A stretch of DNA of 40,354 nt from Piscirickettsiaceae bacterium (GTDB taxonomy: Bacteria > Pseudomonadota > Gammaproteobacteria > Thiomicrospirales > Thiomicrospiraceae): the NCBI GenBank assembly GCA_027019045.1, contig JALUXI010000223.1, positions 1-40,354 on the forward strand, in the 5' to 3' direction. Position 1 is the stretch's first letter. Every line of letters begins with the position of its first letter. The notes below the pieces were generated by a model. The model saw only the letters and a list, made by a program, of their open reading frames with translations. It was not told the DNA's origin and made no database searches. Below are positions 95 to 39,586 of this stretch, piece after piece. A program made the translations under genes and the position numbers.

Positions 95-130
95 GATAAA
101 TAGGCAGAGCAACATTATGTCACTCTGCCA
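95..130 (-). terminator. possible intrinsic terminator ending the RND/low-complexity-protein operon
   Basis: Minus-strand hairpin with stem GGCAGAG (103-109) / CTCTGCC (123-129), followed on the minus strand by TATTTAT. The T-tract is weak. Confidence 0.3.
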
Positions 131-152: not shown

Positions 153-665
153 TTACTTATGAGCTGGTGCTGATTGCTTAGGTGGTTGCTGAGCAGGAGG
201 CGCTGGGGGTGCAGGATAAGGTTGATAAGCCTGTCCTTGTGGCGCTGGATAGTATGGACGTGGTGGTGGCGCATAGTATGGACGAGGCGCACCATAATAA
301 CCACCATTGTAACCATTATAGCCATTGTATCCATTATAGTAGTTACCACGATAGTCGCCACGGTAATCACCTTTATAATCACCGCGATAATCAGAATCAC
401 CTTTACCTTCCATATCGGTATCAGCATCTGCACTGAAGCCCATATTGAACTTACCATGACCTTTACCGTGTCCTTTACCAGAGCCATGCCCTTCACCACG
501 GCCATTACCATTGCCGTTATAGTTTCCATAGCCATTTCCGTAGCCATTACCATAACCATTGTTATAGCCATTGCTGTTCCATGGACCATCGAACCAATCC
601 GCAGAAGCTGCTTGAGAAGCCGCCATTGCAGCAGAAACCATTGTCGCTAGTACAAGTTTCTTCAT
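153..665 (-). CDS. exported low-complexity Gly/Tyr/Asn/Pro-rich repeat protein (unknown family)
   Basis: Uses the ORF-track frame 153..716. I place the start at ATG 663-665, which has an AAGGAG SD 7 nt upstream (minus strand of 673-678). The N-terminus MKKLVLATMVSAAMAASQAASA is a Sec signal peptide. The mature part is tandem micro-repeats: NGY/GNGY, GHGSGKGHGKGHGK, GDYR/GDYK x4, NGY x4, RPYYAP x2, PAPPAPPAQQPP. Confidence 0.6.
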   Translation of the reverse strand: MKKLVLATMVSAAMAASQAASADWFDGPWNSNGYNNGYGNGYGNGYGNYNGNGNGRGEGHGSGKGHGKGHGKFNMGFSADADTDMEGKGDSDYRGDYKGDYRGDYRGNYYNGYNGYNGYNGGYYGAPRPYYAPPPRPYYPAPQGQAYQPYPAPPAPPAQQPPKQSAPAHK

Positions 666-787
666 TTTATTACTCCTTAGTTTTACAGTTAAAGCTTTAT
701 GGTCACTTGAACACATAAAGTACTTCCATTCTCAAGTTAGAGCCTTGAGGTGCTCATCAATGTCCATTTGGGACACTTGAATTCTGT

Positions 788-1270
788 TTACCATCCAAAT
801 GATGGGAAACTCATGCTTGGCATATCCATTTCAGGCATATCAAAGCTGGGCATATCCCAATTTCCCCAATCACCGCCATTTTTTCCAACAAAAGGTATTT
901 TGTCCCATGGATTACGATTATATTCTCTCCGGTTACGAGGAGGAGCATAATAACCATTGGGGTAACCATAATAACCATAAACTGGATACCCTCCTCTATA
1001 GCCATAGGCTGGAGGATAAACCCCTCTTGATCGAGAGGTAGCATATGGAGAAGGGATATTTGTATAAGGCGACCGTACCGGATTCTGTTGGTAATAACCT
1101 TTAGGCAAAGTAGGTTGTGACGACTCTACACTAGGTGATTTTAACCACTGTGGGGTGCGCTGTGTATTATGGTAAGCCTGTTCATCCTGTGGCCAAACAA
1201 CTGCTTGTGCACTACTGGCAAAAAACAGACTACTTAATACAAACATTGTTCCTTTATGAAATATTCTCAT
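788..1270 (-). CDS. exported Tyr/Pro/Gly-rich protein with Met-rich C-terminus (unknown family)
   Basis: Uses the ORF-track frame 788..1279. Two in-frame ATGs are available (1279 and 1270). The ATG at 1270 lies 1 nt after the RND TGA (1272-1274), has GAGGA 8 nt upstream, and gives the signal peptide MRIFHKGTMFVLSSLFFASSAQA. The body contains YPPAYGYRGGYPVYGYYGYPNGYYAPP. The C-terminus is DMPSFDMPEMDMPSMSFPSFGW. Confidence 0.6.
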   Translation of the reverse strand: MRIFHKGTMFVLSSLFFASSAQAVVWPQDEQAYHNTQRTPQWLKSPSVESSQPTLPKGYYQQNPVRSPYTNIPSPYATSRSRGVYPPAYGYRGGYPVYGYYGYPNGYYAPPRNRREYNRNPWDKIPFVGKNGGDWGNWDMPSFDMPEMDMPSMSFPSFGW

Positions 1271-1271
1271 T

Positions 1272-4200
1272 TCACTCATCCTCTAAATTTTTTAATCTAA
1301 TACCGCGTTTTTTCTTGCGTGAAGCTTTTTTAGGTTTCACATGTTCTTCACTATTGACTGCTGATTCATTTGATAACTGAGCCTTTTCTTTTGGGTTTAA
1401 AACACTAACCGCTTCAGCTGTTTCCTCCTGCTTTGCTTCCTCGGTTTCTACAAGTTTTTCATTCTCGTTCTTTTGCTCCAACTGTTCATCTTGAACAGTT
1501 TCTGTAATGGGGGGCTGATGAACCACACTTTTTGTTATTTGAGTTGTGGACTCAGCCGTTAACGCCTCCTCTGACGCTTCTGGTTTTTCAGGTAACGCGG
1601 AAGGTTCCGTTCCTTCTACTAAAGTGGTTTCTGGTTGCTTTTCAGTCTTAAAATACCTATCCAACCCTTTTCTATGAATGCTATGGTAAGGATCTATAAC
1701 GGTTTTAACGAAATCAATCGATTTCCTAAAGGCTGCTCTAGCCTCTTCTTTTAGGGGTTTTTCTTCAGCAACATCACATCCCGGAATAGGACGCCCTTTG
1801 CCATCCACCCCGCCTGGACAAAATGCAGCTCTAGCACTGACACAACCAAGAGGAATCACTACGAGCGTCAAAAGGGTAGCGACCAAAATACCAAAAATGA
1901 GAGAAACCGCCATCCCTTGGAAAATAGGGTCAAATAGAATCACACTAGATCCTAAAACCAATGCAATAGCGGTAATCATAATTGGGCGCGTTCTCGCCTT
2001 ACAAGCAAAAATCACCGCATCCGTTACTAGCATCCCTTTTGCAATCTCTTGACGAGAGAAGTCTACCAACAGAATTGAGTTTCGGACGATAATCCCTGCT
2101 AAGGCAATGAAGCCAATCATGGAGGTCGCTGTAAACTCTGCACCTAACAACCAATGCCCAGGCGCAATACCAATGATGGTCAGCGGAATAGGTGCCATCA
2201 CAATCAATGGAATTAAGAAATTTTTGAATTCCCAAACCACCAACATATAGATCACAAGCAGTGCCACACCGAAGGCTATTCCCATGTCACGGAAAGTTTC
2301 ATAAGTGACCGTCCACTCTCCCGCCCACTTAAATCCTTTTTCAGTCAAACCATCAGGGCGGTAAACAAAATTTCCTTTTAGCCCCTTCATTTCGGGATCT
2401 TTATCTATCAATTTTTGTATATTAAGCATGCCATAAATTGGCGCTCCCAATCGTCCTTGACCCGTTCCCACAACATACTCAACAGGCTTCAAATCCTTAT
2501 GATAAATGCGTTCCTGTTGTCTTTCTAAAACAAAACGACCTAATTCATTTAAAGGCACCGTATGACCTAATACCGAAGGTACGGGAATTTGTCCAATTCT
2601 TGCAAACTCAGGACGAATCGACTGAGGTGCATTGATCACAATATAAGTTGGCTCTCCACGCTTAAAACCCTGCTTAACATCCCCTAAAGGATACTCACCC
2701 ATCGCCATTGCCACAGTCTGGTTAATAGTTTGCACACTAATACCACTCTCCATCGCTTTCTGCTTATCGATGACAAAACGCCAAGTATCATGAGGGGCAG
2801 CCATTAAATTATCCACATCAACAACATCTGGGACTTTATCAAAAATTTCAGTCAACTTGGTCGCCAACTCTTTACGGGATTGTGCATTTGGTCCATACAC
2901 TTCAGCAACAATAGATTGAAGAACCGGTGGACCAGGTGGCATTTCAACTACTTGAATTCTTGCACCATTTGCACGAGCAATTTTATTTAAAATCGGACGA
3001 ATACTCTCAGCAATCTGATGGCTTGTACGGTCACGATCATGTTTTTCGACTAAATGTACCTGAATATCAGCATCCCATGGAAACTGACGCAAATAATAAT
3101 GACGAACCAGACCATTGAAATCGAAAGGTGCAGCTGTTCCTGCATAGCTCTCCATTTGCGTAATTTCTGGCACACTCTTTTGCAAAGCCTTCACTAATTG
3201 AAGTGTTAAATTTTGAGTGACAGTCAAATCCGTTCCTTCAGGATAATTCACAATCACACTAAAATCTGGCTTATTATCATAAGGAAGCAACTTTACGGGA
3301 ACCATTGTGCTATACACCAAGTAAACAGCAATACTAAAAGCTGCAATAATACCTATTAGAAAGCTCCATCCTTTGGTTTTTTCAACCACCAAGCTACCAA
3401 TCAATTTTCTAAAAAATCCCTCTAATTGCTCACTCTGTCTATGCTCCTTTTCTTCAGCTTTTTGTAATTGCTTCATTGTTGGTTTTAACCGTTGTGCCAA
3501 CCAAGGCGTAAAGGCAAAGGCGGCAAATAGAGAAATAATCATCGCTACCGAACCTAAAGCTGGAATCGGCGCCATATAAGGCCCCATCATCCCACTGACA
3601 AAAGCCATTGGCATCAGAGCCGCAATCACCGCCAAGGTTGCGATAATAGTCGGATTCCCTACTTCAGAGACAGCTTCAATCGTAATTTTTGAATCCGTTC
3701 TATTTGCCAATAACCATCGACGATAGATATTCTCCAAGACCACAACCGCATCATCTACTAAAATACCAATAGAGAAAATTAAAGCAAACAGTGAAACACG
3801 ATCAATTGTAAAGCCCATCATCCAGGCAGAAAACACTGTTGTTAGAATAACAATCGGAATCACAATAGCCACTACCGCTGCAGCACGCCATCCTAAAAAG
3901 AGCCAAATTAACAGTGTTACCGAACCTGTCGCAACAAACAACTTAAAAATAAGCTCATTGACCTTATCATTTGCAGACTTCCCATAATCTCGACTGATAG
4001 AAACATGGACATCATCAGGAATAAGTACACCTTTTAAACGATTCACTCGCTCAATCGCATCACGGGCAACCGTTACGCCATTAGAACCTGGCTTTTTAGC
4101 CAGTGCTACTGTAACCGCAGTCTCTCCATCCAAAGCTGTCTCTTTACCATGATAACCAGCCGCCGTATAATGTGAGACAACGCTACGAGGATCACGCCCC

Positions 4201-5039
4201 TCCTCTTTAACAGTAGCAATATCCCTCAGAAAAACAGGCGCATTATCATGAACCCCAACAATCAAGTCCATCACATCTTCTGCAGATTTTAAATAGTCCC
4301 CAGTATAGACCTTATAAAACTGTTGCCAAGCTGAGAAACTACCCGCTGGATTTTCGCTGTTAGCGGCTTGAATCGTCCTACCTACTTGAATCAATGGAAT
4401 GTTATAACTAGCCAACTTTTCAGGATCGATCTCAATTTTGACCTCTAAAGGCTCACCTCCTACAACAAAGCCTTGAGCTGCATTTTTAATTCCCCCTAAT
4501 TCTTGCAAAACATCAAATCCTAAAAGTCGTAATTGATCTGAAGCCAGTTTATTAGAAGAGAGCGTAAAAGTCACAACTGGAACATCATCCGCTCCTTTAG
4601 GCTTTACAATGGGTTGTAAAACCCCTTTGGGCATCTTATCCATATTAGAAGACAGCTTGTTATACACATTAACCAGTGACTTCTCCATATTCTCACCCAC
4701 TTTAAATTGGGCAGTTACAATGGCTTGTCCTCGTTCTGACACGGAATAGACATGGTCCATCCCCTTAATCTCTTTTAAAAGCCTTTCTAGCGGCTCTGAC
4801 ACCAAGGCTTCGACCTGTTTACTGGAAGCACCTGGGTACTGAATCATAATATCTACCATAGGAACTGAAATTTGAGGATCCTCTTGGCGAGGTGTCATCA
4901 GAATCCCCAGAATGCCAATAAAGATACCCGCAATCAATAAGAGAGGCGTTATAGGGGAATTGATATAACTTCTGGCTACCCCCCCAGCAACATCATGTTT
5001 CGATTCGTATTGAACAGTCTGCTTTGTATGTTTCTTCAT
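1272..5039 (-). CDS. RND efflux permease (AcrB/HAE1-like) with ~190-aa acidic C-terminal tail
   Basis: 1255 aa with 12-TM RND architecture and two large periplasmic loops. TM4 motif SIGILVDDAVVVLENI. After the last TM comes a tail (encoded ~1275-1844) that starts CVSARAAFCPGGVDGKGRPIPGC, becomes E/K/T-rich, and ends KKASRKKKRGIRLKNLEDE. Confidence 0.9.
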   Translation of the reverse strand: MKKHTKQTVQYESKHDVAGGVARSYINSPITPLLLIAGIFIGILGILMTPRQEDPQISVPMVDIMIQYPGASSKQVEALVSEPLERLLKEIKGMDHVYSVSERGQAIVTAQFKVGENMEKSLVNVYNKLSSNMDKMPKGVLQPIVKPKGADDVPVVTFTLSSNKLASDQLRLLGFDVLQELGGIKNAAQGFVVGGEPLEVKIEIDPEKLASYNIPLIQVGRTIQAANSENPAGSFSAWQQFYKVYTGDYLKSAEDVMDLIVGVHDNAPVFLRDIATVKEEGRDPRSVVSHYTAAGYHGKETALDGETAVTVALAKKPGSNGVTVARDAIERVNRLKGVLIPDDVHVSISRDYGKSANDKVNELIFKLFVATGSVTLLIWLFLGWRAAAVVAIVIPIVILTTVFSAWMMGFTIDRVSLFALIFSIGILVDDAVVVLENIYRRWLLANRTDSKITIEAVSEVGNPTIIATLAVIAALMPMAFVSGMMGPYMAPIPALGSVAMIISLFAAFAFTPWLAQRLKPTMKQLQKAEEKEHRQSEQLEGFFRKLIGSLVVEKTKGWSFLIGIIAAFSIAVYLVYSTMVPVKLLPYDNKPDFSVIVNYPEGTDLTVTQNLTLQLVKALQKSVPEITQMESYAGTAAPFDFNGLVRHYYLRQFPWDADIQVHLVEKHDRDRTSHQIAESIRPILNKIARANGARIQVVEMPPGPPVLQSIVAEVYGPNAQSRKELATKLTEIFDKVPDVVDVDNLMAAPHDTWRFVIDKQKAMESGISVQTINQTVAMAMGEYPLGDVKQGFKRGEPTYIVINAPQSIRPEFARIGQIPVPSVLGHTVPLNELGRFVLERQQERIYHKDLKPVEYVVGTGQGRLGAPIYGMLNIQKLIDKDPEMKGLKGNFVYRPDGLTEKGFKWAGEWTVTYETFRDMGIAFGVALLVIYMLVVWEFKNFLIPLIVMAPIPLTIIGIAPGHWLLGAEFTATSMIGFIALAGIIVRNSILLVDFSRQEIAKGMLVTDAVIFACKARTRPIMITAIALVLGSSVILFDPIFQGMAVSLIFGILVATLLTLVVIPLGCVSARAAFCPGGVDGKGRPIPGCDVAEEKPLKEEARAAFRKSIDFVKTVIDPYHSIHRKGLDRYFKTEKQPETTLVEGTEPSALPEKPEASEEALTAESTTQITKSVVHQPPITETVQDEQLEQKNENEKLVETEEAKQEETAEAVSVLNPKEKAQLSNESAVNSEEHVKPKKASRKKKRGIRLKNLEDE

Positions 5040-5091
5040 ATTAGTTTCTCTAAATTGCTTAATGGAATATTGCTCAATATCACTCTTCTTT

Positions 5092-5233
5092 GTAACTACT
5101 CAGTTAACACCGTAACTGCTCAGATTGCCCCTGAAATTCGTCAATTCAAGGCAGAAAATGTGAGTTTACAAGTCGTAAATGGCCATTTTCCAACGCAGAA
5201 GTGTCGGATTTCAGGGGTGAGCTGAGTAGTTAC
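5092..5233. mobile_element. MITE family 1, copy 1 (142 bp foldback element)
   Basis: Termini are GTAACTACTCAG (5092-5103) and CTGAGTAGTTAC (5222-5233). Internal inverted repeat CCCCTGAAAT/ATTTCAGGGG. An exact 8-bp direct repeat TCTTCTTT flanks it (5084-5091 and 5234-5241). Related copies lie at 6783 and 14660. Confidence 0.8.
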
Positions 5234-6417
5234 TCTTCTTTTTGAACTAAACGCTCCGGCAATAACTTTCCATCTTCTAGCTTCATTCCAGACACAATAT
5301 TTTCTGGCGGATTCACCACCACATGTTCACCCGCCTTCAATCCAGCTAAGACAATGTTGTATCCATTTTGTGCATACTTACCTAAGCGAACCACATTCAT
5401 ATGCACTTTTTTTGTTTGAGGATCGACAACATAAACCGCTGGTAAACTACCTAGTTTACGAATTGCTGTTTCAGGCACAACAGGAAAATGAAGATTCTGT
5501 GAAGCTGCATTTTTGACTTGCACCTCTGCATACATACCAGGGGCTGCATGTGCACCTAAAGGTAAATCAAACTTCACTTTAACCGTATGTTGCAATGCAT
5601 CCGCAATAGGAAAAACTTGCGCCACCCTAACTTGAATAGGAGGCTGATTATCGACTCTCGCCATAAATATGGCACCTTTTCGAATACCTTGCATAAGATT
5701 GACTGGGATATTCACCTCAACCGTTAAATGTTTACTTTTGGCAAAGACCAACAATGGCTTTCCTGGCATCACTACATCGCCAGCCTCAATCATTTTTTGG
5801 ACAATAATGCCATCAAAGGGTGCTCGACTCTTAGTATGGGTAAGTTGAATATCAATTTCTGCAATTCGAGCTTTAGCTCGCTCCATATTTGCAATAGCTT
5901 GCTTAACTTGTGTCATCACAGCAGCTAAATTAGCTCGATTCTCTGCATCTTTGTCCCCGATTCCAATTGTGTCAGAAAAAGGCCGAGTAAACATTTGATC
6001 CATCATGTTGGGCAAAGCCATTCCAGGCATAGGTTGCTCAGATTTAGGGCTCCACAATTCACGGTTATACTGAGCAACAGCATTTTGATAGGCTGCCATC
6101 GCACTTTGAAAGTCTGCCATCGCAGCTGCTCGTCGTGCCAACAATACCTTATCATCAGTCGATACCAGCAACTCCCCAGCTTTAAAACGATCTCCTTCTA
6201 CACCGGCCAAAAAATTAACTTCTCCACCAACCTGTGCTGAAATAGTGACTTTTTTAAACGGAATAACGGTTCCACCCAAGCTGACATATCGATCATACAC
6301 TGCCGTTCCCACTGTTTCGACCTGAACAGAGGCCTGTGCCACCTGAAACACGCCCCCCCACAAAATACTCCCGAGTGCAAAGATTTTAATTGAGCGTTGA
6401 AGAACTGGTAATTTCAT
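5230..6417 (-). CDS. RND efflux periplasmic adaptor (membrane fusion protein, HlyD family)
   Basis: 395 aa. Signal/anchor MKLPVLQRSIKIFALGSILWGGVFQVAQA. Has the coiled-coil hairpin and beta-barrel layout typical of MFPs. Lies directly upstream of the RND gene. Its TAA stop (5230-5232) sits inside the MITE terminus. Confidence 0.9.
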   Translation of the reverse strand: MKLPVLQRSIKIFALGSILWGGVFQVAQASVQVETVGTAVYDRYVSLGGTVIPFKKVTISAQVGGEVNFLAGVEGDRFKAGELLVSTDDKVLLARRAAAMADFQSAMAAYQNAVAQYNRELWSPKSEQPMPGMALPNMMDQMFTRPFSDTIGIGDKDAENRANLAAVMTQVKQAIANMERAKARIAEIDIQLTHTKSRAPFDGIIVQKMIEAGDVVMPGKPLLVFAKSKHLTVEVNIPVNLMQGIRKGAIFMARVDNQPPIQVRVAQVFPIADALQHTVKVKFDLPLGAHAAPGMYAEVQVKNAASQNLHFPVVPETAIRKLGSLPAVYVVDPQTKKVHMNVVRLGKYAQNGYNIVLAGLKAGEHVVVNPPENIVSGMKLEDGKLLPERLVQKEE

Positions 6418-6782
6418 GTAGCAATCTCCATTATTTTTAGGGACAGGTCAAACCAAAATGTCCGAAGAATTCCATGTCCTGACTACGAGAAATAAAGATA
6501 AAGCTTTTAACGCAAAAAAGATAAACAAAAAAACTTATGAGGGATAAATAAAAATTATGAGGAAGCAAGAAGGACAGAAAACAATATATAAGCAATTGAT
6601 TTTATTAGAATATAATAAAATTATTATATTATAAAATTATGTAATTGTATTTATTTATATCAACTAACCAGTAGCGTTTATATCACAAACCCCTAATATA
6701 GTGAACAATGCCTTATCCATAGCTACTCAAGTAAAAATTGGTTGAAACGATCCACAAGAATTGTCGACTACCATCTTAATTT

Positions 6783-6924
6783 GTAACTACTCAGTTGATA
6801 CTGTAACTGGTCAGATTGCCCCTGAAATTCGTCAATTCCAAGCGGAAGATATGAGTTTACAAGTCGTAAATAACTATTTTCCAACGCTGAAGTGGCGGTT
6901 TTCAAGGAGGAGCTGAGTAATTAT
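6783..6924. mobile_element. MITE family 1, copy 2 (142 bp, degenerate right end)
   Basis: Colinear with copy 1: GTAACTACTCAGTTGATACTGTAACTGGTCAGATTGCCCCTGAAATTCGTCAATTC... The right end is CTGAGTAATTAT instead of CTGAGTAGTTAC. The 8-mer CTTAATTT occurs at 6775-6782 and again at 7062-7069, beyond the adjoining family-2 element. Confidence 0.75.
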
Positions 6925-6927
6925 CTT

Positions 6928-7059
6928 GAGAGCTTTGCACGAGATGGCAACATGGATAAAAAAGGCTAAAATTCCCCGTCGTTGAAAAACTTGGCAATAG
7001 CTAGGATTCGAGAAATTTTATCTCTTTTTTCTCTCGCGTCCCACTCGTGTAAAGCTCTC
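6928..7059. mobile_element. MITE family 2, copy A (132 bp, inverted relative to copies B/C, central deletion)
   Basis: Termini are GAGAGCTTTGCACGAG... and ...CTCGTGTAAAGCTCTC. It aligns to the reverse complement of 23729-23887 and lacks about 27 bp of the central hairpin. Confidence 0.75.
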
Positions 7060-7070
7060 ACCTTAATTTT

Positions 7071-7236
7071 AGGAAGTACGGAGGTACTGATTAAATCACT
7101 TAGCTCTTGGGTAAACCAGTCCTTCAGAATAGAGACACCTTTTTGCAGGGGAAATCAATGCAGTATGGGCGGCAAATAAAACAGATGCTGGGCATTTTAT
7201 CCCTTTAGCAGTTTAATCAGCACTTCCTTAGAAAGC
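7071..7236. repeat. candidate third inverted-repeat element (weak)
   Basis: GGAGGTACTGATTAAA (7080-7095) and its near-complement TTTAATCAGCACTTCC (7212-7227) face each other about 116 bp apart. The same 16-mer, GGAAGTGCTGATTAAA, recurs at 40121-40136. Confidence 0.3.
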
Positions 7237-7274
7237 GGCTAAACATCCGCCCCCAACACAAAAATCCAAGGGAT

Positions 7275-7309
7275 AAAAAAACCCACACCCTCAATAAGAA
7301 GGTATGGGT
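7275..7309 (-). terminator. probable intrinsic terminator of sqr
   Basis: The minus-strand RNA ACCCAUACC...GGUGUGGGU (one G-U pair) is followed by a U7 run (plus-strand A-run 7275-7281). It lies about 90 nt past the sqr stop. Confidence 0.5.
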
Positions 7310-7397
7310 TGTTATCCAAACACCACCAATATAAAAGGTGGTTTATAAGACGCTTTATCTCACGAATCAACTCATTTCTGAATCTGAGAAGTCGTGA

Positions 7398-8705
7398 TTA
7401 CTTATCCCCCTTCAAACGGGAGATACCAAGCATCTTCATAATATATTTCTGATAAATTGGTTCAGAATTCCCTGACTTCATATTACGAATGAAGTATTTC
7501 TCAAATGCAATCTTAGCCAAGTGAACCCACTTTCCTTTTTTTGCCCATGTTAGGTTACGAGGTGGAATCTGAGGCAAGGCAACAAATGCTGCTCCAGTAT
7601 CCCCCATATCTGCTAGACAAATTGTATTCCAAGTTGGCTCAGCATCAGGCTCTTTACCTTCAAGATTCGCTTCAATGTTATGACAAATAGCGGTAACCAT
7701 TGACTCGATCATCAAACCAGTCTTAGGTGTCCCTACCGGTACAGGTGTCGCTTCAACAGGTGGAATCGCAATCCCCACACCCAAGGCATAAATATTATGG
7801 TATGTTGGGTTACGGCTGTATTGATCCACTTTGACAAAACCACGAGGGTTCACTAATGGCCCCCCCATATTGTCTGGTTGCACCAAGTCTTGTAAGAATT
7901 GAGAGCCTTTAAAAGCTGGCAACATCATGCTGTATTTAAATGGCAATTCGTGTGTATTGATTACTTCACCTTGCATATTATGCTCTTTTACATACATTTT
8001 GCCATCTTCAATTTTCTCAACGGCAGCATTACAAATCCACTTAATATGGCGGTTACGCATTTCAGACTCAAGCAGACCGTTAGAGTCACCCACCCCACCT
8101 AGACCAAGGTGACCAATATAAGGCTCAGAGGTTACAAAAGTCATCGGGACTTGTGCACGCAATTTACGCTTACGCAAATCCGTATCCATAATCATCGCAA
8201 ATTCATAAGCAGGACCATAGCAAGAAGCCCCTTGAACAGCACCTACAATAATAGGTCCTGGGTTTTCGCAAAATTCTTCCCACTGCTCATGTGCCTCTGC
8301 TGCATGAGGTGTTGTACAAACAGAAACGGTATTTCCACCTTGGCTTTTAGGACCAAAGCCTTCTACTTCATGGAATGCTAAGGTCGGCCCTGTTGCCAAA
8401 ACCAAATAGTCATATTCCATTTCAGAACCATTGCTCAAAGTTAACTTATTGTTATCTGGATCTAAAGCAGTAACCGTTTCATGATAAAACTCAATCCCTT
8501 TTCGAGTAAGATGTGGCTCCAATTTAAAAGAGATATCTTCTGGTTTACGCCACCCTACAGCGACCCAAGGGTTTGATGGAACGAAGGTAAATTCTTCATA
8601 AGCATTTACAACTTTAATAGTATGCTCTTTACCAAGATGCTTACGAATATCATAAGCCATGGGAAGACCACCCGTACTGGATCCTACAACGACGATTGTT
8701 GCCAT
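7398..8705 (-). CDS. sqr: sulfide:quinone oxidoreductase, type I
   Basis: 435 aa. N-terminal dinucleotide fold IVVVGSSTGGLPMAY. Three cysteines in the SQR contexts VSVCTTPH (C130), GASCYGPAYE (C162) and TICLADMGD (C363); positions are my own count. C-terminal amphipathic helices KIAFEKYFIRNMKSGNSEPIYQKYIMKMLGI. Confidence 0.9.
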   Translation of the reverse strand: MATIVVVGSSTGGLPMAYDIRKHLGKEHTIKVVNAYEEFTFVPSNPWVAVGWRKPEDISFKLEPHLTRKGIEFYHETVTALDPDNNKLTLSNGSEMEYDYLVLATGPTLAFHEVEGFGPKSQGGNTVSVCTTPHAAEAHEQWEEFCENPGPIIVGAVQGASCYGPAYEFAMIMDTDLRKRKLRAQVPMTFVTSEPYIGHLGLGGVGDSNGLLESEMRNRHIKWICNAAVEKIEDGKMYVKEHNMQGEVINTHELPFKYSMMLPAFKGSQFLQDLVQPDNMGGPLVNPRGFVKVDQYSRNPTYHNIYALGVGIAIPPVEATPVPVGTPKTGLMIESMVTAICHNIEANLEGKEPDAEPTWNTICLADMGDTGAAFVALPQIPPRNLTWAKKGKWVHLAKIAFEKYFIRNMKSGNSEPIYQKYIMKMLGISRLKGDK

Positions 8706-8907: not shown

Positions 8908-10131
8908 TTATGATTTGCTTATAATTATTGCAGGCACCCAATTCAATACCACCCATGTCATCACTAACAAAGAAGAGATTACCATAAAACTCTCTTTTTG
9001 AATCAATATGTTATCACTAAATAACAACACTCCCACTCCAACAATCAATAAAATACTCGTCACCCAAATGGGGCGCCCAATACTGACTAAAGTAAAGCGA
9101 ATCGCCTGTTCAGGTTGCTGAAAAAACCCTCTCTTTGCCCGCAAATAACGCACAAAAAAATGGATACCATCGTCAACAATCAACCCCAAAGGCACCACTA
9201 ACATCCAAGCCTGAAGTGTCTCATCCTGCCACAATATCCAAATAGTCGCCACAATAACAATACTATACATCCCTAAGACCATATTTAACAAAGCGTACCA
9301 CACACTTTTCCATACAATGGCAAGCAAGAGCGTCAAGCCAAAAAATACGCCTAACAATTGGTGCCAAACCTCCTGCCCATGCAAGCGAGGCAGAATCCAC
9401 CATAAAGCTACACCACCCAACAGCATCCCTATACCAAAAATGAAACGACTTATTCTAGGATGCAACTTTAAAAAATTCACTACACCACCTAAACCATGGC
9501 GATCTTTCGGCTCCCCAACACGACATTCAATCAGCCAATTCAATAAAATCCACGGCAACCATGAACCACTGACCCAAAGGCTAAATAACGCTCCCAGTCC
9601 CACTATCCATGCCATTTCTCTCAAAGAAGGTTCAAACCAAGCTGCCACAATAAAGCTCACTGCGGTGGTCACATTGGACAAAACCACAGGTTGAAAATTC
9701 AGTTGCAACGCTTCTGACAAGGCATCATGTTGAAACTGCCCTCTCGCCATCTCTCGGTGTAACCCAGTCAACAGATGCACTAAATTACTTATCAGCATCG
9801 TCACCACCACCAAGAAAGCTAATGAGGCCAACCCATCTTTGCCCTCAAGCGGCATCCCTAGCCAACCCAAAGCGCCTGTCACCATCAATAAAATACCAAA
9901 CGAAAATAACAACATCAGCAAAGCAGTTTTAATCGACTGCATCAACCAAGCCGCCACCAAGCTCATCGCCAATAAACTCAACCCCAGCAATCCCATCTGC
10001 ATAAAGTCATGCATAGAAAAATAAACATTTCCCAGCAGCACACCTAAAGTCACCCCTGAAAACACCCCCAAAGCAAATAAACGGTTGTGCAGTAGCCACA
10101 CCACCCAATGAAAAGCCCACTGATTCTGCAT
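8908..10131 (-). CDS. 12-TM RND/MMPL (sterol-sensing-domain)-like membrane protein lacking periplasmic loops
   Basis: 407 aa and almost entirely hydrophobic; I count about 12 TM segments. The second half carries the RND TM4-like motif PLGLIVDDGIHFFVRYLRAKRG followed by the usual TM5/TM6 pattern. The first half is a degenerate copy (VVVTMLISNLVHLLTGLHREMARG). SD GAGGAAAGGG precedes ATG 10131. Confidence 0.55.
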   Translation of the reverse strand: MQNQWAFHWVVWLLHNRLFALGVFSGVTLGVLLGNVYFSMHDFMQMGLLGLSLLAMSLVAAWLMQSIKTALLMLLFSFGILLMVTGALGWLGMPLEGKDGLASLAFLVVVTMLISNLVHLLTGLHREMARGQFQHDALSEALQLNFQPVVLSNVTTAVSFIVAAWFEPSLREMAWIVGLGALFSLWVSGSWLPWILLNWLIECRVGEPKDRHGLGGVVNFLKLHPRISRFIFGIGMLLGGVALWWILPRLHGQEVWHQLLGVFFGLTLLLAIVWKSVWYALLNMVLGMYSIVIVATIWILWQDETLQAWMLVVPLGLIVDDGIHFFVRYLRAKRGFFQQPEQAIRFTLVSIGRPIWVTSILLIVGVGVLLFSDNILIQKESFMVISSLLVMTWVVLNWVPAIIISKS

Positions 10132-14659: not shown

Positions 14660-14779
14660 GTAACTGCTCAGATTGCCTCTGAAATTCATCAATTCAAGGT
14701 AGAAAATGCGCATTTATAACGAGTAATAAGCATTTTACAGTACAAAGTGGCAGATTTTAGGGGTGAGTTAAATAGTTAC
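14660..14779. mobile_element. MITE family 1, copy 3 (120 bp, lacks the duplicated left terminus)
   Basis: Runs GTAACTGCTCAGATTGCCTCTGAAATTCATCAATTCAAGG...GGGGTGAGTTAAATAGTTAC. Flanked by an exact 8-bp direct repeat TTTTTAAG (14652-14659 and 14780-14787). Confidence 0.75.
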
Positions 14780-23575: not shown

Positions 23576-23728
23576 TTCCCATCAAACTAAACTGGAATAA
23601 CATAAGCTCTTCAAAAGGAGGTTGTTAAACTTCAAAAGCAAAACAACTTAGGAGTGATTATATATAAGAATTTAATAATATCAAAGTTTTTTTATATTAT
23701 CTTTCACTAAAGTCTTTTATCCTACCAT

Positions 23729-23887
23729 GAGAGCTTTGTATGAGTGGGACACGAAAGAAAAAAGAGATAAAATTTTTCGAATCTAGGCGAAAAGCTTGGC
23801 AATAGCCAGCTATTTCCAAGTTTTTCAACGAAGAGTCGGGGAATTTTAGCCTTTTTTATCCGTGTAGCCATTTCGTACAAAGCTCTC
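23729..23887. mobile_element. MITE family 2, copy B (159 bp whole-length foldback)
   Basis: Termini GAGAGCTTTGTATGAG... and ...TCGTACAAAGCTCTC. The left and right arms are imperfect complements along the whole length. Central hairpin CTTGGCAATAGCCAGCTATTTCCAAG. Confidence 0.8.
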
Positions 23888-23891
23888 ATAA

Positions 23892-27109: not shown

Positions 27110-27412
27110 TTATTGACCCAAGTTGCCCCGCTGCAAAATGGGCAGCACTCGATAGGCAATGGTTAAAGAAGGAAGGTTTTTTTCTATTGTTTCCAATATA
27201 GGGGCAAGCTGTTCATCTTTCAGCTCAACCTCAAATTTAACTTTATGTTGAGCGCCTTTCACCTGCTCATTTGCTGAAAGCTGTTCATGTGGCTGACCGT
27301 AACCATCCGTATCTATCGCTGTAAAAAAGGGGAGGTTCTCCTGTGCCAATAAAAAGTCACTCAATAAATATGCTTGCTTTTCTGGCACAATCAGCTGAAG
27401 TAATTGACTCAT
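27110..27412 (-). CDS. DUF3240-like small PII-fold protein associated with heavy-metal RND pumps (tentative)
   Basis: 100 aa. ATGA overlap with the czcA stop. Its size, position after an HME-RND gene and FTAIDTDGYG motif recall DUF3240. Confidence 0.45.
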   Translation of the reverse strand: MSQLLQLIVPEKQAYLLSDFLLAQENLPFFTAIDTDGYGQPHEQLSANEQVKGAQHKVKFEVELKDEQLAPILETIEKNLPSLTIAYRVLPILQRGNLGQ

Positions 27413-30400
27413 ACCATCTCTCCTTTCAAGGCTTGTTTCTGCTTAAACTGCTCTACCATCCGATAAACAATCGGTAAAATCAAGAGGGTTAATAGGGTAG
27501 AGGTAATCAAGCCACCAATCACCACAATCGCCAAAGGCCGTTGAATTTCAGAGCCTGGGCCTGTTGCCAATGCAAGGGGAATCAGCCCTAACATGGCAAT
27601 ACTGGCGGTCATCAGTACAGGGCGCAGTCGGCGTTTTGCCCCTTCTACCACCACCTGCTCTAAAGGCAATCCTTGGCTCCGTAACTGGTTAAAGTAACTG
27701 ACCATCACCACTCCATTGAGTACCGCTATCCCCAGTAGCGCAATAAAGCCAACAGAAGCAGGGACAGAGAGATATTCCCCTGTGAACCACAAAGCCACAA
27801 TCCCGCCAATCATGGCCAAAGGCACATTGAGCATAATCATCAAACTCTCTGCAACCGATTTAAAGGTAGCAAAAAGAATCAAGAAAATCATTGCTAAAGC
27901 AATCGGTACCACGATGCTTAGTCTTTCTGCCGCTCGCTGCTGGTTTTCAAAAGTCCCCCCCCACTCAAAATAGTAGCCCGTTGGAACTTTCATTTGAGCA
28001 GCTTTCTGTTTTGCCTCTTCAACAAAACTCACCAAGTCTCGTCCTTCAATATAAGCCACCACGACCGAATAGCGTTTACTCATTTCTCGTTTAATCGAGA
28101 CAGGACCTTCCACGGACTGCACTTTTACCACTTGACTAAGCGTGACACTCTCCCCATTCTTCAAGGGGATCTCCAAGTTGAGAAAATCTCGCCGAGCCTT
28201 TGCCACATCACCGCCTGTTTTAATCAACAATGGAATGCGGCGAATATCTTGATAGATGGTGCCAACAGGCAAACCTTCTAGCTGGGCTCTTAAAAGATCT
28301 TCAATCATATCAACATCCAAGCCTAATCGCCCAGCAGCCATACGATCCACCTCAAGCTTTAGATAACGAGACCCTTCATTTACAGGGGTATAAACATTAG
28401 ACGCACCTGGAATGGTTTTTAATACCTCAACCAGTTGCTTAGCTGTTTCATTCAGCTTTTCAGGATTGTCACCAAAGACTTTCACCGCTAAATCACCACG
28501 CACCCCTGTTAGCATCTCATCCACACGCATCTGAATCGGTTGAGTAAAGGCATAATTAATCCCAGGGAAGTAGGTATCCAATACCTTTTTGATTTCAGCT
28601 TGGAGTTCAGTTTTGGTCTGCATCCGCCACTCTGATTTAGGCTTTAGTACCATAAAGGTATCAGTGTCATTTAGCCCCATGGGATCCATTCCTATCTCAT
28701 CAGCGCCCACTCGACCAATCATACTCTTCACCTCTGGCACATGCGCCATAATAGCCGCTTGAATGCGTTTGTCTAACTCCATAGAGGCTTCTAAACTAAT
28801 AGAGGCCGCTTTTTCAATCTGCAAGACAATGGTGCCTTCATCCATCTGTGGCATAAAACTTTTACCCACTTGGGTAAAGACAACACCTGCCCCAATTAAA
28901 GCAACCAATGCAAATCCAATCACAACTTTTGGCATCTGCAGTGCCTTATGTAAAACGGGCGTATAAACAGCAAGAAGTTTACGAATTAACCAAGGGTCTT
29001 CATGCTTGATTTTGCCCAACAACATTGAAGCCAGTGCAGGAATAACCGTAAGAGACAGTACCACTGCCGCCCCCAAAGCAAATACAATGGTGATGGCAAC
29101 AGGAGAAAAGAGCTTGCCCTCCAACCCTTGCAAGGTCAGCAAAGGCAAAAATACAATCATGATAATGCCAATCCCTGAAATCACAGGTACCGCCACCTCT
29201 CTTACGGCACGATAAATCAAATGCGACTTAGGCAGTTTACCTTGACTTTTCTCCATATGGGTGACGATATTTTCAACCACCACCACAGCCGCATCCACCA
29301 GCATCCCAATAGCAATCACCAGCCCACCTAATGACATCAGGTTGGCACTTAAGCCATACCATCGCATCAAAACAAAAGTTGTTAAAATGGCCAATGGTAA
29401 AATCACCGCAACCGCTATTGCCGCCCGCAGATTTCCAAGGAAAACAAATAATAGAACCACCACCAATATAACGGCCTCTATCAATGCTTTACTTACTGTC
29501 CAAGTTGCCTGATTGACTAAGTCGGAGCGATCGTAAAAAACATTAAAAGTAATGCCCTCTGGCAAAGCAGGCTCAAGCTGTTGAATTTTTGCTTTCACGC
29601 CCTGAATCACTTCACGGGCATTCGCACCTTTCAACCCAATAACCAATCCTTGAACAGCTTCTCCTTTACCATCTTTGGTCACACCGCCATAACGGGTTAA
29701 ATGACTGACTACTACATCTGCGACATCACGCACCAATATCGGTACACCCGATTGAGCAGTTCGTACAACTGTATTTTGAATATCTGCCAAAGAAGTAAAG
29801 TTACCCGCCGTTCTCACCAAAAGCGTCTCCTCCCCTTCTGTTAACCGACCTGCCCCATCATTGCGGTTATTGCGTTCTAAAGCTACCCGTAACTGCTCAA
29901 AGGTCACCTGATGCGCTCGCATCTTGGTCATATCAGGGCGAACTGCAAAGGCTCTGGCATAGCCTCCCATGGTATTCATATCCGCCACTCCTGGAACTGA
30001 GCGCAAAGCAGGACGAATGACCCAATCCAACAGATCTCGTTTTTCCATATCTGTTAACGAGTCCCCCTCAAGGGTAAACATAAACATATCCCCTAAAGGA
30101 GTGGCAATGGGAGTTAATCCACCCGAAACACCCACAGGCAATTCAGCTCCACTAAGGCGCTCTGTCACCTGCTGTCTTGCCCAATAAATATCCACGCCCT
30201 CTTCAAATTCCAGCGTAATATCGGCAATCCCATATTTTGATTGAGAGCGTAATAAAGTCTCACCTGGAATCCCTAAAAGCTCCATCTCCAAAGGGGCAAT
30301 AACACGGTCTTCCACTTCTTTTGGTGTCATCCCAGGGGCTTTAAAGATTAACTTAACTTGAACGGGCGATACCTCAGGGAACGCATCTATTGGCGTTTTC

Positions 30401-30498
30401 ACCATCGCCATCCAACCGCCTCCCAAAATGGCAGCAACCAACATCAAAACCAAAAGGCGTTGAGAAAGAAAAAACCCTATCAATCGTTCAATGAGCAT
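27409..30498 (-). CDS. czcA: heavy-metal efflux RND permease (CzcA/CusA family)
   Basis: HME-type TM4 motif GGLVIAIGMLVDAAVVVVENI and 12-TM RND architecture. I prefer ATG 30496-30498 (MLIERLIGFF...), which has AGGAGG upstream and an 11-nt overlap with the czcB stop, over the ORF-track start at 30528. Confidence 0.9.
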   Translation of the reverse strand: MLIERLIGFFLSQRLLVLMLVAAILGGGWMAMVKTPIDAFPEVSPVQVKLIFKAPGMTPKEVEDRVIAPLEMELLGIPGETLLRSQSKYGIADITLEFEEGVDIYWARQQVTERLSGAELPVGVSGGLTPIATPLGDMFMFTLEGDSLTDMEKRDLLDWVIRPALRSVPGVADMNTMGGYARAFAVRPDMTKMRAHQVTFEQLRVALERNNRNDGAGRLTEGEETLLVRTAGNFTSLADIQNTVVRTAQSGVPILVRDVADVVVSHLTRYGGVTKDGKGEAVQGLVIGLKGANAREVIQGVKAKIQQLEPALPEGITFNVFYDRSDLVNQATWTVSKALIEAVILVVVLLFVFLGNLRAAIAVAVILPLAILTTFVLMRWYGLSANLMSLGGLVIAIGMLVDAAVVVVENIVTHMEKSQGKLPKSHLIYRAVREVAVPVISGIGIIMIVFLPLLTLQGLEGKLFSPVAITIVFALGAAVVLSLTVIPALASMLLGKIKHEDPWLIRKLLAVYTPVLHKALQMPKVVIGFALVALIGAGVVFTQVGKSFMPQMDEGTIVLQIEKAASISLEASMELDKRIQAAIMAHVPEVKSMIGRVGADEIGMDPMGLNDTDTFMVLKPKSEWRMQTKTELQAEIKKVLDTYFPGINYAFTQPIQMRVDEMLTGVRGDLAVKVFGDNPEKLNETAKQLVEVLKTIPGASNVYTPVNEGSRYLKLEVDRMAAGRLGLDVDMIEDLLRAQLEGLPVGTIYQDIRRIPLLIKTGGDVAKARRDFLNLEIPLKNGESVTLSQVVKVQSVEGPVSIKREMSKRYSVVVAYIEGRDLVSFVEEAKQKAAQMKVPTGYYFEWGGTFENQQRAAERLSIVVPIALAMIFLILFATFKSVAESLMIMLNVPLAMIGGIVALWFTGEYLSVPASVGFIALLGIAVLNGVVMVSYFNQLRSQGLPLEQVVVEGAKRRLRPVLMTASIAMLGLIPLALATGPGSEIQRPLAIVVIGGLITSTLLTLLILPIVYRMVEQFKQKQALKGEMV

Positions 30499-31651
30499 GA
30501 CTCGCCCCTCCTTCTCCTTCTCCTTCACCTTCCATCATGCCTTTTAAGAAAATGGCTCCAAAGCTAACCACCTGTGTCTCTGCATCAGGTGTTTCAGCCA
30601 AAGCTACTGTTGCGCTATGGCCATCCCGTTCAATCAACTCAACCACTTGTGGCTCAATATGCTCACCCTCTTTAACAAAAATGGCTGACACACCTTCTAA
30701 ATCCACCACAGCACGACTGGGAACTTGATACGCCTGCTTCGGAGTCCCTTGAATAAAATGCACCCGAACAAAAGTACCTGGAAGCAGCTGACCCTTTAAT
30801 TGTTCAAAGCGTACATGCACGCTCACTCTTTGGGTTTCGGGGTCTGCTTGGTTGGCAATATAAGCCACCTGACCAATAATGGGGTATCCTTCAACTGACA
30901 CTTTCTGCCCGACAAAAATACGACTCAACTCATTCATTGGCAGCATCACATCAGCAATCAGGTGGTTATTTTCTCCAATATGCACCAAAGGGGTATTGGC
31001 TTCTATGCGTTGGTTTCGCTCTACCTGCAAATCAAACAACATGCCCTCTTTAGGAGATTTTAATGTTAACCACCGCTGCAATTTTCCTGTTTGGCGAAGC
31101 TGATTCATTTGTTCTTGGGACATCCCTACAATCTTTAAGGCTTGTTGAGAGGCTTCTACTGCGGTACGAGCCTGGGTACGCTCTGTTTGAGCAATCAAAA
31201 ACTGTTTCTCGGATAAACTGCCCGCTTTAAACAGCCTTTGCGCCCGTTTAAAGTTGCGTTCCGCTTGCGCTTTTTGTGCCAAGGCATCCAGCCAATCTTG
31301 CTGCATTTTTACCCACTGTTCACTCTCTAATTCAAAGAGAGGTTGTTCTGCTTTTACCGCACCATGCACTACAAAAATTTTGTGTATCTTGCCACTCACA
31401 GGAGAAGCCACCATATCCTGATGTGCCAAAGGCAGTTCCATCTGTGCAGGCCAAGCATAGCCTGAAACTTGAGTCACAGGAGTCAAAGCAGAAAACTGCA
31501 ATCCCAATGCTTTAATTTGTGCTTCATTCAATTCCAACCCCATTTCCTCATGGTGTTCTGCCTCTCCATGTGCTTGTTCATGCCCTTCTTCTGCTTGAAT
31601 CGAACCACTCATTGCCAGTGCCATTGCACCGATTAAAACCCATGATTTCAT
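30488..31651 (-). CDS. czcB: heavy-metal efflux membrane fusion protein (CzcB/CusB family)
   Basis: 387 aa. Signal peptide, a His/Glu-rich N-terminus (EEGHEQAHGEAEHHEE), a coiled-coil hairpin, and a C-terminal GEGEGEGGASHAH. Confidence 0.85.
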   Translation of the reverse strand: MKSWVLIGAMALAMSGSIQAEEGHEQAHGEAEHHEEMGLELNEAQIKALGLQFSALTPVTQVSGYAWPAQMELPLAHQDMVASPVSGKIHKIFVVHGAVKAEQPLFELESEQWVKMQQDWLDALAQKAQAERNFKRAQRLFKAGSLSEKQFLIAQTERTQARTAVEASQQALKIVGMSQEQMNQLRQTGKLQRWLTLKSPKEGMLFDLQVERNQRIEANTPLVHIGENNHLIADVMLPMNELSRIFVGQKVSVEGYPIIGQVAYIANQADPETQRVSVHVRFEQLKGQLLPGTFVRVHFIQGTPKQAYQVPSRAVVDLEGVSAIFVKEGEHIEPQVVELIERDGHSATVALAETPDAETQVVSFGAIFLKGMMEGEGEGEGGASHAH

Positions 31652-31653
31652 TG

Positions 31654-32892: not shown

Positions 32893-32962
32893 TTTTTCAG
32901 TCCACTTTTTTAAATTGTGAACTGAGTTTACAAGAAAAAGCTGAATTGAAGCTGAAAGAGAC

Positions 32963-34303: not shown

Positions 34304-34971
34304 TAATCGGTCTCCTCACACAACTGATACCCTTGCCCTCTCAAAGTTTTAATTCGTTTGGCGCCAACCAACCTACGCAAGCGGCTAATATACACCTCCA
34401 CCATATTTAAATCCTTATCATCAGAGTCTTCAGTCATCAACTCCATTAAATAAACTTTACTTAACACCTGTCCAGGACGACGCATCAATGCACTCAATAG
34501 GGTAAACTCCACAGCCGTTAAAGTATGCCTCTTCCCATCCACCGTCACCTCTTTACGAGCCAAATTCAAAATTAAGTCCCCCACCTGTATGGTCTCACCG
34601 TCCTCAGTCACACCCAAACGGCGAAGCAACGCCACAATTCGAGCTTGCAGCTCCTCAAAATGAAACGGCTTGCCCACATAATCATCCGCCCCTGCCTGCA
34701 ACCCTTCTACCCGCTCTTGCCAAGCATTACGAGCGGTCAATATCAGAACAGGCGTCTTATCTCCCGCTGCTCGTCTTTGCTGTAACAGCGACAAACCATC
34801 CAACTTTGGTAAGCCCAAATCCAATAACACTAAATCAAAATCCTCTTCCTGCCAATACCAAAGACCCTCTTCTCCATCCGCTGCAGTCTGCACCGAATAG
34901 CCTAATTTTTCTAATGCCTGTTTTAAATGCTTAGCAATCAAAGACTCATCTTCAACCAAAAGTATCCGCAT
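34303..34971 (-). CDS. OmpR/PhoB-family response regulator
   Basis: 222 aa. Receiver domain (MRILLVEDE...DLVLLDLGLP...) plus a winged-helix output domain (VEVYISRLRRLV...IKTLRGQGYQL). Confidence 0.92.
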   Translation of the reverse strand: MRILLVEDESLIAKHLKQALEKLGYSVQTAADGEEGLWYWQEEDFDLVLLDLGLPKLDGLSLLQQRRAAGDKTPVLILTARNAWQERVEGLQAGADDYVGKPFHFEELQARIVALLRRLGVTEDGETIQVGDLILNLARKEVTVDGKRHTLTAVEFTLLSALMRRPGQVLSKVYLMELMTEDSDDKDLNMVEVYISRLRRLVGAKRIKTLRGQGYQLCEETD

Positions 34972-39394: not shown

Positions 39395-39428
39395 GTTAAG
39401 TGATACAATTTTGAATAATCGTCAGATT

Positions 39429-39586
39429 GAGCGTTTTGCACGAGAAGGACGCAAGAGAAAAAAGAGATAAAATTTTCTGAATTGAGACGGAAAATGCAGG
39501 CAATAGTCGACTATTGCCAAGTTTTCCAACGAAGAGTCAGGAGATTTTAGCCTTTTTTATCCGTGGCCATCTTGTGCAAAGCGCTC
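39429..39586. mobile_element. MITE family 2, copy C (158 bp foldback)
   Basis: Runs GAGCGTTTTGCACGAG...CTTGTGCAAAGCGCTC and is colinear with 23729-23887. Central hairpin CAGGCAATAGTCGACTATTGCCAAG. It fills most of the hemJ/slyD divergent intergenic region. Confidence 0.8.

Follow-up and report, generated by a model that had tools for sequence, protein, structure and literature searches.

What are two exported, low-complexity proteins doing at the end of an operon that encodes a membrane pump? The question is raised by a stretch of DNA of 40,354 nucleotides (contig JALUXI010000223.1 of the GenBank assembly GCA_027019045.1, hereafter the window), which comes from an uncultured bacterium of the Thiomicrospira group (Piscirickettsiaceae/Thiomicrospiraceae). 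Four genes share the minus strand at its start: an adaptor of the membrane fusion protein type (MFP, 5230-6417), a resistance-nodulation-division (RND) pump (1272-5039) and two genes that we call A (788-1279) and B (153-665). Gene B encodes a 170-aa protein rich in Gly, Tyr, Asn and Pro, and gene A a 163-aa protein rich in Pro, Tyr and Gly; both are predicted to be exported. The reading that we prefer, with a probability of about 0.5, is that A and B are structural proteins that handle zero-valent sulfur and are made together with an MFP-RND pump without a gene for an outer-membrane factor (OMF).

Sulfur globule proteins (SGPs) coat periplasmic sulfur globules in purple sulfur bacteria, in Beggiatoa and in sulfur-storing symbionts; to our knowledge, coat proteins are known only for such intracellular globules. 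For the bacteria that deposit sulfur outside the cell, the problem is how the hydrophobic sulfur crosses the envelope, how it stays wettable and how it is remobilised. The present locus bears on this problem: in a clade that makes extracellular sulfur, a conserved pump operon contains an SGP-family gene together with a gene of a new partner family. The SGP family as such is known; what is new is the setting of B, in a pump operon, beside the partner family A, in a clade with extracellular sulfur and within an eight-gene neighbourhood.

Export, composition and predicted structure

Both proteins start with a signal peptide (MRIFHKGTMFVLSSLFFASSAQA in A and MKKLVLATMVSAAMAASQAASA in B) that, judged by eye, has a basic start, a hydrophobic core and an AxA cleavage site. 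In B, the signal peptide is encoded by 600-665 (minus strand) and shows n, h and c regions; the predicted cleavage lies between MKKLVLATMVSAAMAASQAASA and DW, and on inspection the AxA site is kept in all the homologues, the pattern A-[SY]-A followed by DW being conserved across the family. The Sec signal peptides that the initial annotation had assigned to both proteins are therefore canonical by inspection, and every sequence motif that it had quoted was found in place.

Mature B has 148 aa and 16.0 kDa, with 22% Gly, 15% Tyr, 12% Pro and 11% Asn, and it contains no Ile, Leu, Val or Cys at all. Mature A has 137 aa and 15.9 kDa (Pro 15%, Tyr 12%, Gly 9%), also with no Cys. AlphaFold2 predicted both to be disordered, with a pLDDT of 51 for A and 43 for B and a pTM of 0.15-0.17, and the sole structured feature in the model of B is a low-confidence beta-hairpin in its core. 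These predictions describe A and B as Sec-exported, intrinsically disordered structural proteins.

Protein B and the sulfur globule protein family

Against the Pfam SGP model (PF17228), B gave a match of 15.8 bits (E = 0.026; residues 24-76 on model positions 1-56), lower than the gathering threshold of 26.7 bits, and this match begins exactly at the predicted mature N-terminus. Sub-threshold matches were also found in 4 of 5 members of the B family, and the SGP of Beggiatoa leptomitoformis matches the model with 27.7 bits in the same register as B.

We searched 1.84 billion representative proteins exhaustively with HMMER, using a profile of four B sequences, and obtained only 88 matches. Ten of these were scanned with PF17228 and seven passed its cut-off: P0063 (45.4 bits), P0075 (42.8), P0042 (40.7), P0091 (31.6), P0061 (29.0), P0081 (28.7) and P0089 (28.2). 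The first of them, from the Solemya velum gill symbiont, is annotated as "Sulfur globule protein CV1 / sulfur globule family protein", and BLASTP aligned B with it at E = 7e-4 under compositional adjustment, GHGKFNMGFSADADTDMEG standing against GRGSFNFSMDADADADTEF.

Regarding the low complexity of these sequences, we compared B with its own shuffled and reversed versions. On a hidden Markov model (HMM) of ten mature SGPs, mature B scored 10.2 bits, whereas its shuffles scored -26.9 +/- 4.7 (0 of 300 reached the score of B) and the reversed sequence -19.2; the absolute scores of B on the SGP models are low. With a model of four Chromatiaceae-like SGPs only, the values were 5.9 for B and -21.3 +/- 3.6 for the shuffles. 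The alignment of B to the Chromatiaceae-type SGPs is collinear, passing through WWGGPW, GDFSMNLSGRGNTNMRG and YYGGY. At the SGP core motif GDF[SN]M.[MLF]SG[RG]G.TNM, B has GKFNMGFSADADTDMEG, where F-N-M-x-F and T-D-M are kept and G-R-G is replaced by A-D-A. Taken on its sequence, B is thus a divergent member of the SGP superfamily that lies outside the current boundary of the Pfam family.

Some other matches were set aside. An hhalign comparison of the B family with three Beggiatoaceae SGPs gave a probability of 97.8%, which we did not use as evidence because it collapses once the signal peptides are removed, when only the Pro/Tyr tail aligns; the N-domain by itself scored 17.4, barely above its column-shuffled versions (12.3 +/- 3.0). 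The matches of B to the TrAA12-like (Pfam), "serine-rich protein" and CsdA (NCBIfam) models are low-complexity artefacts far below the cut-offs.

Compared with SgpA and SgpB (CV1 and CV2) of the Chromatiaceae and of sulfur-storing symbionts, B shares the Sec signal peptide, a mature start at an aromatic W-[WF]-x-G-P and a Gly/Tyr/Asn-rich composition with no Cys, as well as the order of its parts: a central G-x-F-[SN]-M-x-[FML]-x-x-x-x-x-T-[DN]-M, then a Y/G/N-rich region and then a P/A/Y-rich tail. The small size is also shared, with 16 kDa for mature B, about 15 kDa for the SGPs of Beggiatoa and 10.5-10.7 kDa for those of Chromatiaceae. However, B contains additional repeat blocks (GHGK and GDYR), its Pro-rich tail is longer, and B is encoded within an RND pump operon, whereas the sgp genes are reported to be separate transcription units (PMC10386293).

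The Beggiatoa SGPs (ALG67575.1, EIJ43877.1) and B have in the same order a signal peptide, a WW/WF-G-P start and a G/W/N-rich stretch; "GDFNMSM" in Beggiatoa stands for "GKFNMGF" in B, and in both cases R-G-Y, GYP and an AP-rich tail ending in K follow. The 15-kDa globule envelope protein of B. leptomitoformis and B. alba belongs to the same size class as B. Nevertheless, B differs from them in failing PF17228, and the similarity is marginal after control for signal peptide and composition (HMM z = 2.4). Disruption of the SGP gene of B. leptomitoformis by a transposon abolishes globule formation (PMC7356093).

The initial annotation had guessed at a sulfur-globule-coat-like protein and had recognised no named family for either product. 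For B the guess was right, since it is a remote relative of the Pfam SGP and NCBI "sulfur globule family" proteins; the absence of a named family holds for A only.

When one genome per GTDB species was scanned for the B family, 49 loci came up, all of them in Thiotrichales. In the Piscirickettsiaceae-type genomes (Thiosulfatimonas, Hydrogenovibrio, Sulfurivirga and unnamed lineages), B always lies 3' of RND-A. In Thiotrichaceae (Cocleimonas, Thiothrix and Leucothrix metagenome-assembled genomes), the B paralogues are stand-alone genes, often several per genome, with a highly conserved core (ASADWFDG...GKGDADGEVDFxIxFKGKGRTDMDT) and variable tails made of F[ST]MPWNNN repeats or coiled coils. 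Some of these paralogues carry long F-[STN]-M-P-W-N-N-N arrays (L010, L014, L023, L028, L037 and positions 4163-4972 of L008; L numbers denote loci from other assemblies), and many others have a coiled-coil-like tail rich in Gln, Ala and Lys. In four Cocleimonas-like genomes (L012, L022, L027, L047) an SGP-like gene that stands alone is arranged tail-to-tail with another MFP-RND pair, again without an OMF gene, and the arrangement is flanked by housekeeping genes. This may be a second association of an SGP-like gene with an RND pump, or a chance arrangement inherited once.

Protein A, a partner of B

Protein A had no Pfam or NCBIfam match at E <= 1 and no match in PADLOC. A profile search of 5.8 billion proteins found 30 clusters of homologues; most of the members are unnamed and those with a name are all called "hypothetical protein", the named hosts being Sulfurivirga caldicuralii, Thiomicrorhabdus sp. 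ZW0627 and T. hydrogeniphila. By these searches, the A family is small, unnamed and specific to the Thiomicrospira group.

The mature N-terminus of the family is an invariant W-P-Q-x-E-x-x-Y...P-Q-W. The middle part is variable and P/Y/G-rich, and its GYPVYGYYGYP resembles the GYP repeats of the Beggiatoaceae SGPs. The C-terminus is a run of [D/N/S]-M-P-[S/N] units, in which the Met is nearly invariant among 26 family members, and it ends in FGW (as in the window) or FWN. There is also a short homologue, in L001, whose tail has no Met. Protein A therefore looks like a clade-specific partner of B with SGP-like micro-motifs (GYP, F/S-x-M-P), for which membership of the SGP family cannot be shown.

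In the public gene call of the A homologue of L003 (P0007, 2990-3595), 66 extra residues precede the signal peptide. The true start is likely the Met at 3134, which leaves about 180 nt from the RND gene.

The pump operon and the eight-gene block

The pump (1272-5039, minus strand, 1255 aa) is an RND inner-membrane protein by its Pfam match (ACR_tran, 501.8 bits). It misses every NCBIfam subfamily cut-off, with 447 bits on RND_permease_2 (cut-off 1250) and 247.5 bits on the CusA/CzcA model TIGR00914 (cut-off 701), and its best solved relatives are TriC, MexK and MdtB. By these matches it is probably a divergent pump of the HAE1-like subfamily, and it is not of the CusA/CzcA type. The MFP (5230-6417, minus strand, 395 aa) was assigned as its periplasmic adaptor from family model matches and alignment. 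No OMF gene accompanies the A/B pump in the window, as the initial annotation had described. In this respect it is like TriABC, MexJK and MdtABC, MFP-RND pairs that borrow an outer-membrane channel encoded elsewhere, and it is like the CusCFBA operon, with CusF, in having a small periplasmic protein encoded inside.

However, the A/B pump departs from these systems in three ways. A and B are disordered low-complexity proteins, whereas CusF is a folded metallochaperone. The tip of the adaptor hairpin carries an invariant Met/Pro-rich loop, YNRELWSP..E..MPGM.LP.M.DQMF (about 5980-6069, minus strand), unlike the adaptors of TriABC, MexJK and MdtABC; the hairpin tip of classical adaptors is the contact site for the outer-membrane channel, and here the loop resembles the MP repeats of A. 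Finally, and also unlike those three pumps, the RND protein has a disordered cytoplasmic C-terminal tail of about 190 aa (1275-1844, minus strand; delimited by aligning the tails of all the cluster RND orthologues) with a conserved basic peptide, KKKRGIRLKNLEDE (1275-1316), at its end. In the orthologues (L001, L003-L006, L018, L038, L039, L042) the tails are 110-240 aa long, disordered and poorly conserved, except for the strictly conserved end [RK][RK]KRGIxLKx[LM], after which acidic residues follow.

The window ends 152 bp past B, so the initial annotation missed the continuation of the block. This continuation is present in all the relatives and in L056, which stems from the same organism and was assembled from a public read set (Logan, SRR7968105); its protein A is identical to that of the window. 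There, positions 3544-7364 beyond B encode a 206-aa ATPase of the ParA/MinD type, two membrane proteins and a dynamin-family GTPase (522 aa). The ATPase aligns full-length with ParF and the GTPase with the EHD proteins. The first membrane protein has a disordered region, with a weak TPR-like match in its homologues, and the second one is a membrane-anchored coiled coil whose homologues show a weak DUF948 match. The downstream half was also found in L003 (4565-8225) and L054 (9141-13585).

The complete block thus runs MFP, RND, A, B, ParF-like ATPase, two membrane-anchored proteins and dynamin-like GTPase. The eight genes occur in this order in L001/L002/L032, L003/L004, L005, L006, L038, L039/L042 and L054, while L018 ends inside B. 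RND, A and B are contiguous in 10 of 10 cluster loci, and A overlaps or abuts the RND stop in 8 of them, L003/L004 having a spacer of about 180 nt. The flanks differ in at least four synteny groups; since the order is kept while the flanks change, the block behaves as a unit. The tie of A and B to the pump, which had been proposed from the window only, is therefore borne out by an order kept in every related locus found, and so is the conservation of the MFP-RND-A/B neighbourhood in relatives that had been suggested as a check.

Our literature search returned nothing relevant on dynamin/RND/ParA gene clusters, and the block is an undescribed gene neighbourhood. PADLOC gave for the block only weak coiled-coil matches and a LeoA match for the GTPase (E = 1.8e-4); these matches being weak, the identity as a defence system was dropped. 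The block is like ParF-ParG and McdA-McdB in having a ParF-like ATPase near a basic candidate partner peptide at the end of a disordered region (PMC10241942, for the principle). In those systems the peptide is an N-terminal tag of a cytoplasmic cargo adaptor, whereas here it would be C-terminal on a membrane pump. By this analogy, the C-terminal basic peptide of the RND could be a ParA-partner tag.

What A and B may do

The named relatives that bear the cluster are Hydrogenovibrio, Thiomicrorhabdus, Sulfurivirga and Thiosulfatimonas. Hydrogenovibrio excretes sulfur globules in which carbon was detected (PMC5733100) and Thiomicrorhabdus forms extracellular globules and rods of alpha-S8 (PMC10608990), both despite having SoxCD (PMC5733100, PMC10608990). 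For Thiomicrospira crunogena, the sulfide:quinone oxidoreductase (SQR) was proposed as the source of the external sulfur, the same paper leaving its handling open and raising the question of its remobilisation (PMC1635747). We found no paper that mentions "sulfur globule protein" together with Thiomicrospira, Thiomicrorhabdus, Hydrogenovibrio or Sulfurivirga. Sulfur handling is the best reading for A and B because relatives excrete sulfur globules and the external sulfur of T. crunogena has been attributed to SQR. According to this reading, SQR and Sox would produce zero-valent sulfur at the periplasmic face, the self-assembling, aromatic-rich proteins A and B would coat or wet it, and the HAE1-like pump would clear the periplasm of hydrophobic sulfur species, or of another envelope amphiphile, via a TolC-type channel encoded elsewhere. 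Sulfur binding, the substrate of the pump and the roles of the ParF-like and dynamin-like proteins are parts that we infer.

Several observations weigh against sulfur handling. B remains under the PF17228 threshold, and its resemblance to the Beggiatoaceae SGPs is largely a matter of signal peptide and composition (z of about 1.7-2.4 when these are removed). The SGPs that bridge B to the family were themselves retrieved by a B-based profile, which is partly circular. The known SGPs belong to intracellular (periplasmic) globules and are monocistronic, whereas here we have a pump operon and relatives with extracellular sulfur; in the same way, the hosts of Chromatiaceae-type SGPs keep their globules in the periplasm and the relatives of our host deposit sulfur outside. 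B paralogues occur in Leucothrix and Cocleimonas, and not all these organisms store sulfur. We know of no RND pump that transports sulfur. For every member of both families, the putative sulfur role is read from sequence and context.

A further point against it concerns the SQR gene of the window (7398-8705), to whose vicinity the initial annotation had drawn attention. With 488 bits against the SQR of Acidithiobacillus ferrooxidans, it is indeed type I-like. However, it forms a separate transcription unit, an intrinsic terminator (7310-7280) and about 980 bp lying between it and the pump operon, and no SQR lies beside the cluster in any other locus examined. We therefore rejected a functional link between SQR and the operon, as the neighbourhood is not conserved.

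The alternative that survives best is that A and B form a sulfur-independent, disordered and self-associating periplasmic matrix that organises or anchors the pump and the downstream membrane-remodelling module (ParF-like ATPase, coiled-coil membrane proteins and dynamin/EHD-like GTPase), for instance at a particular envelope site, the resemblance to SGPs being a shared material property and not a shared substrate. The block kept as a unit would fit this, as would the searches made, in which no gene of the eight gave a match to a sulfur-metabolism family. The KRGIxLKxL of the RND tail resembles the charged disordered peptides that engage ParA/MinD ATPases (PMC10241942), and the ParF-like and EHD-like alignments of the ATPase and the GTPase, the echo of the repeats of A in the adaptor loop and the paralogues in Leucothrix and Cocleimonas point in the same direction. 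Nevertheless, all the genomes found with the family are Thiotrichales and the nearest named relatives of B are annotated as SGPs, in sulfur-storing bacteria. In addition, we know of no case in which a cytoplasmic ATPase of the ParA type positions a periplasmic scaffold, and so we hold this alternative as possible but doubtful.

A bolder form of sulfur handling, which we think rather improbable, would make the whole eight-gene block a dedicated machine for the exit of elemental sulfur from the cell. The specialised HAE1-like RND would extrude hydrophobic S8 or organic polysulfanes from the periplasm, and the SGP-like A and B would coat and wet the sulfur, which would explain the carbon in the extracellular globules of Hydrogenovibrio. 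The ParF-like ATPase would space the pumps along the nucleoid via the basic peptide of the RND tail, and the membrane-anchored dynamin/EHD-like GTPase would remodel the envelope for the release. If this were true, the block would provide extracellular sulfur deposition with its first molecular route, and its RND would be the first membrane pump known as a cargo of a ParA-type ATPase. The pairing of an RND with a ParF-like ATPase and a dynamin-like GTPase could by itself extend the list of ParA-type cargos. Tests are feasible in cultured carriers, namely Thiomicrorhabdus sp. ZW0627, Sulfurivirga caldicuralii and Thiomicrorhabdus hydrogeniphila; in the last of these the cluster occupies positions 2721-13585 of L054, with A as JCM30760_00060.

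The metal-binding role that the initial annotation had proposed fared worse, and we consider it very unlikely. In such a reading, A and B would bind or sequester Cu(I), Ag(I) or Zn and, in the manner of CusF in CusCBA, would supply the pump or act as its buffer. It is true that B carries the His-rich GHGSGKGHGKGHGK and A the Met-rich DMPSFDMPEMDMPSMSF, that the Met in the MP repeats of A hardly varies and that the adaptor has a conserved Met-rich loop too. However, the equivalent tract of B has no His in L006, L018 and all the Thiotrichaceae paralogues, the tail of the short A homologue in L001 is free of Met, and neither protein has Cys. Furthermore, the pump is far from the CusA/CzcA cut-off (247 bits versus 701) and resembles TriC, MexK and MdtB, whereas a true CusA/CzcA system exists 26 kb away from it and has no A/B-like proteins. 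This is a canonical tripartite system at 27409-34971 (minus strand) that comprises an RND of the CusA/CzcA family (27409-30528; 1023.7 bits), a CzcB-like adaptor, an outer-membrane factor (27409-32892 up to this point) and a histidine kinase with its response regulator.

Gene starts and coding status

The two reading frames, their coordinates, the RND stop (TGA, 1274-1272), the gap of 122 nt between the stop of A and the start of B at 665, and the Shine-Dalgarno sequence AAGGAG of B (673-678, minus strand; read from the sequence, 7 nt 5' of the ATG) were all found as first described. The exception is the start of A, for which there are two candidates. The ATG at 1270 that the initial annotation had chosen exists, 1 nt past the RND stop, and would give 160 aa. 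However, the ATG at 1279 (163 aa), which overlaps the RND gene by 8 nt, is the likelier start because the same 8-nt overlap recurs in L018, L038, L042 and L054. This arrangement would couple the translation of A to that of the RND gene.

Between the window and L003, the differences in B fall on the three codon positions as 17/7/70, and the codon changes comprise 64 synonymous and 20 non-synonymous ones. Protein A evolves faster (61/46/71), with conserved termini. In a protein-guided alignment of the window, L003 and L005, the indels of B are whole codons. Every period of the DNA tandem repeats of A and B (9, 12, 18, 24 and 30) is divisible by three, and the alternative open frames that overlap A and B on both strands do exist, as had been reported, as secondary by-products of these repeats. 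The conservation of the frames in relatives, suggested from the start as a check, was found: A and B are intact in at least 9 related loci, with the codon pattern expected from selection for protein. These patterns point to purifying selection on A and B and mark both as genuine genes. That their frames arose from repetitive DNA and are not translated, as the several overlapping frames open on both strands could suggest, is extremely improbable in view of the third-position bias and the synonymous excess in B, the whole-codon indels, the repeat periods, the signal peptide and the N- and C-terminal motifs kept across genera at 30-50% identity, the strong Shine-Dalgarno sequence before B and the conserved overlap of A with the RND stop.

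Other features of the window

Directly past the stop of A there is a 59-nt intergenic element (729-787, minus strand) that is conserved in close loci: it is about 85-90% identical in the window/L056, L003/L004 and L005, although protein A shares only about 50% identity among these loci. Two small hairpins lie in the element, its fold not being significant (z = -1.6), and it was not found in the more distant cluster loci. Regarding an internal promoter for B, the sole consensus match overlaps its start codon, and Rfam found no RNA family in the window. A terminator-like hairpin with a 12-bp stem and a weak T tract lies 24 nt past the stop of B (103-129, minus strand) and also occurs in L056 (3408-3434). 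It may act as a partial terminator or as an mRNA stabiliser ahead of the ParF-like gene.

Beside SQR, positions 8908-10131 (minus strand) encode a polytopic membrane protein of 407 aa with a faint match, over half of the transporter, to an RND of the HAE3 type (35.7 bits) and no Pfam family. The remainder of the window is housekeeping (mfd, serS, crcB, rarA, lolA and ftsK).

Finally, the window contains two families of short intergenic repeats, one at 5089-5232, 6780-6923 and 14660-14726 and the other at 6927-7060, 23728-23888 and 39428-39565. The copies are 77-92% identical in both families, some of them are inverted, and they look MITE- or REP-like (miniature inverted-repeat transposable element; repetitive extragenic palindrome). 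One copy fills the unusually long gap of 190 bp between the adaptor and the RND genes.

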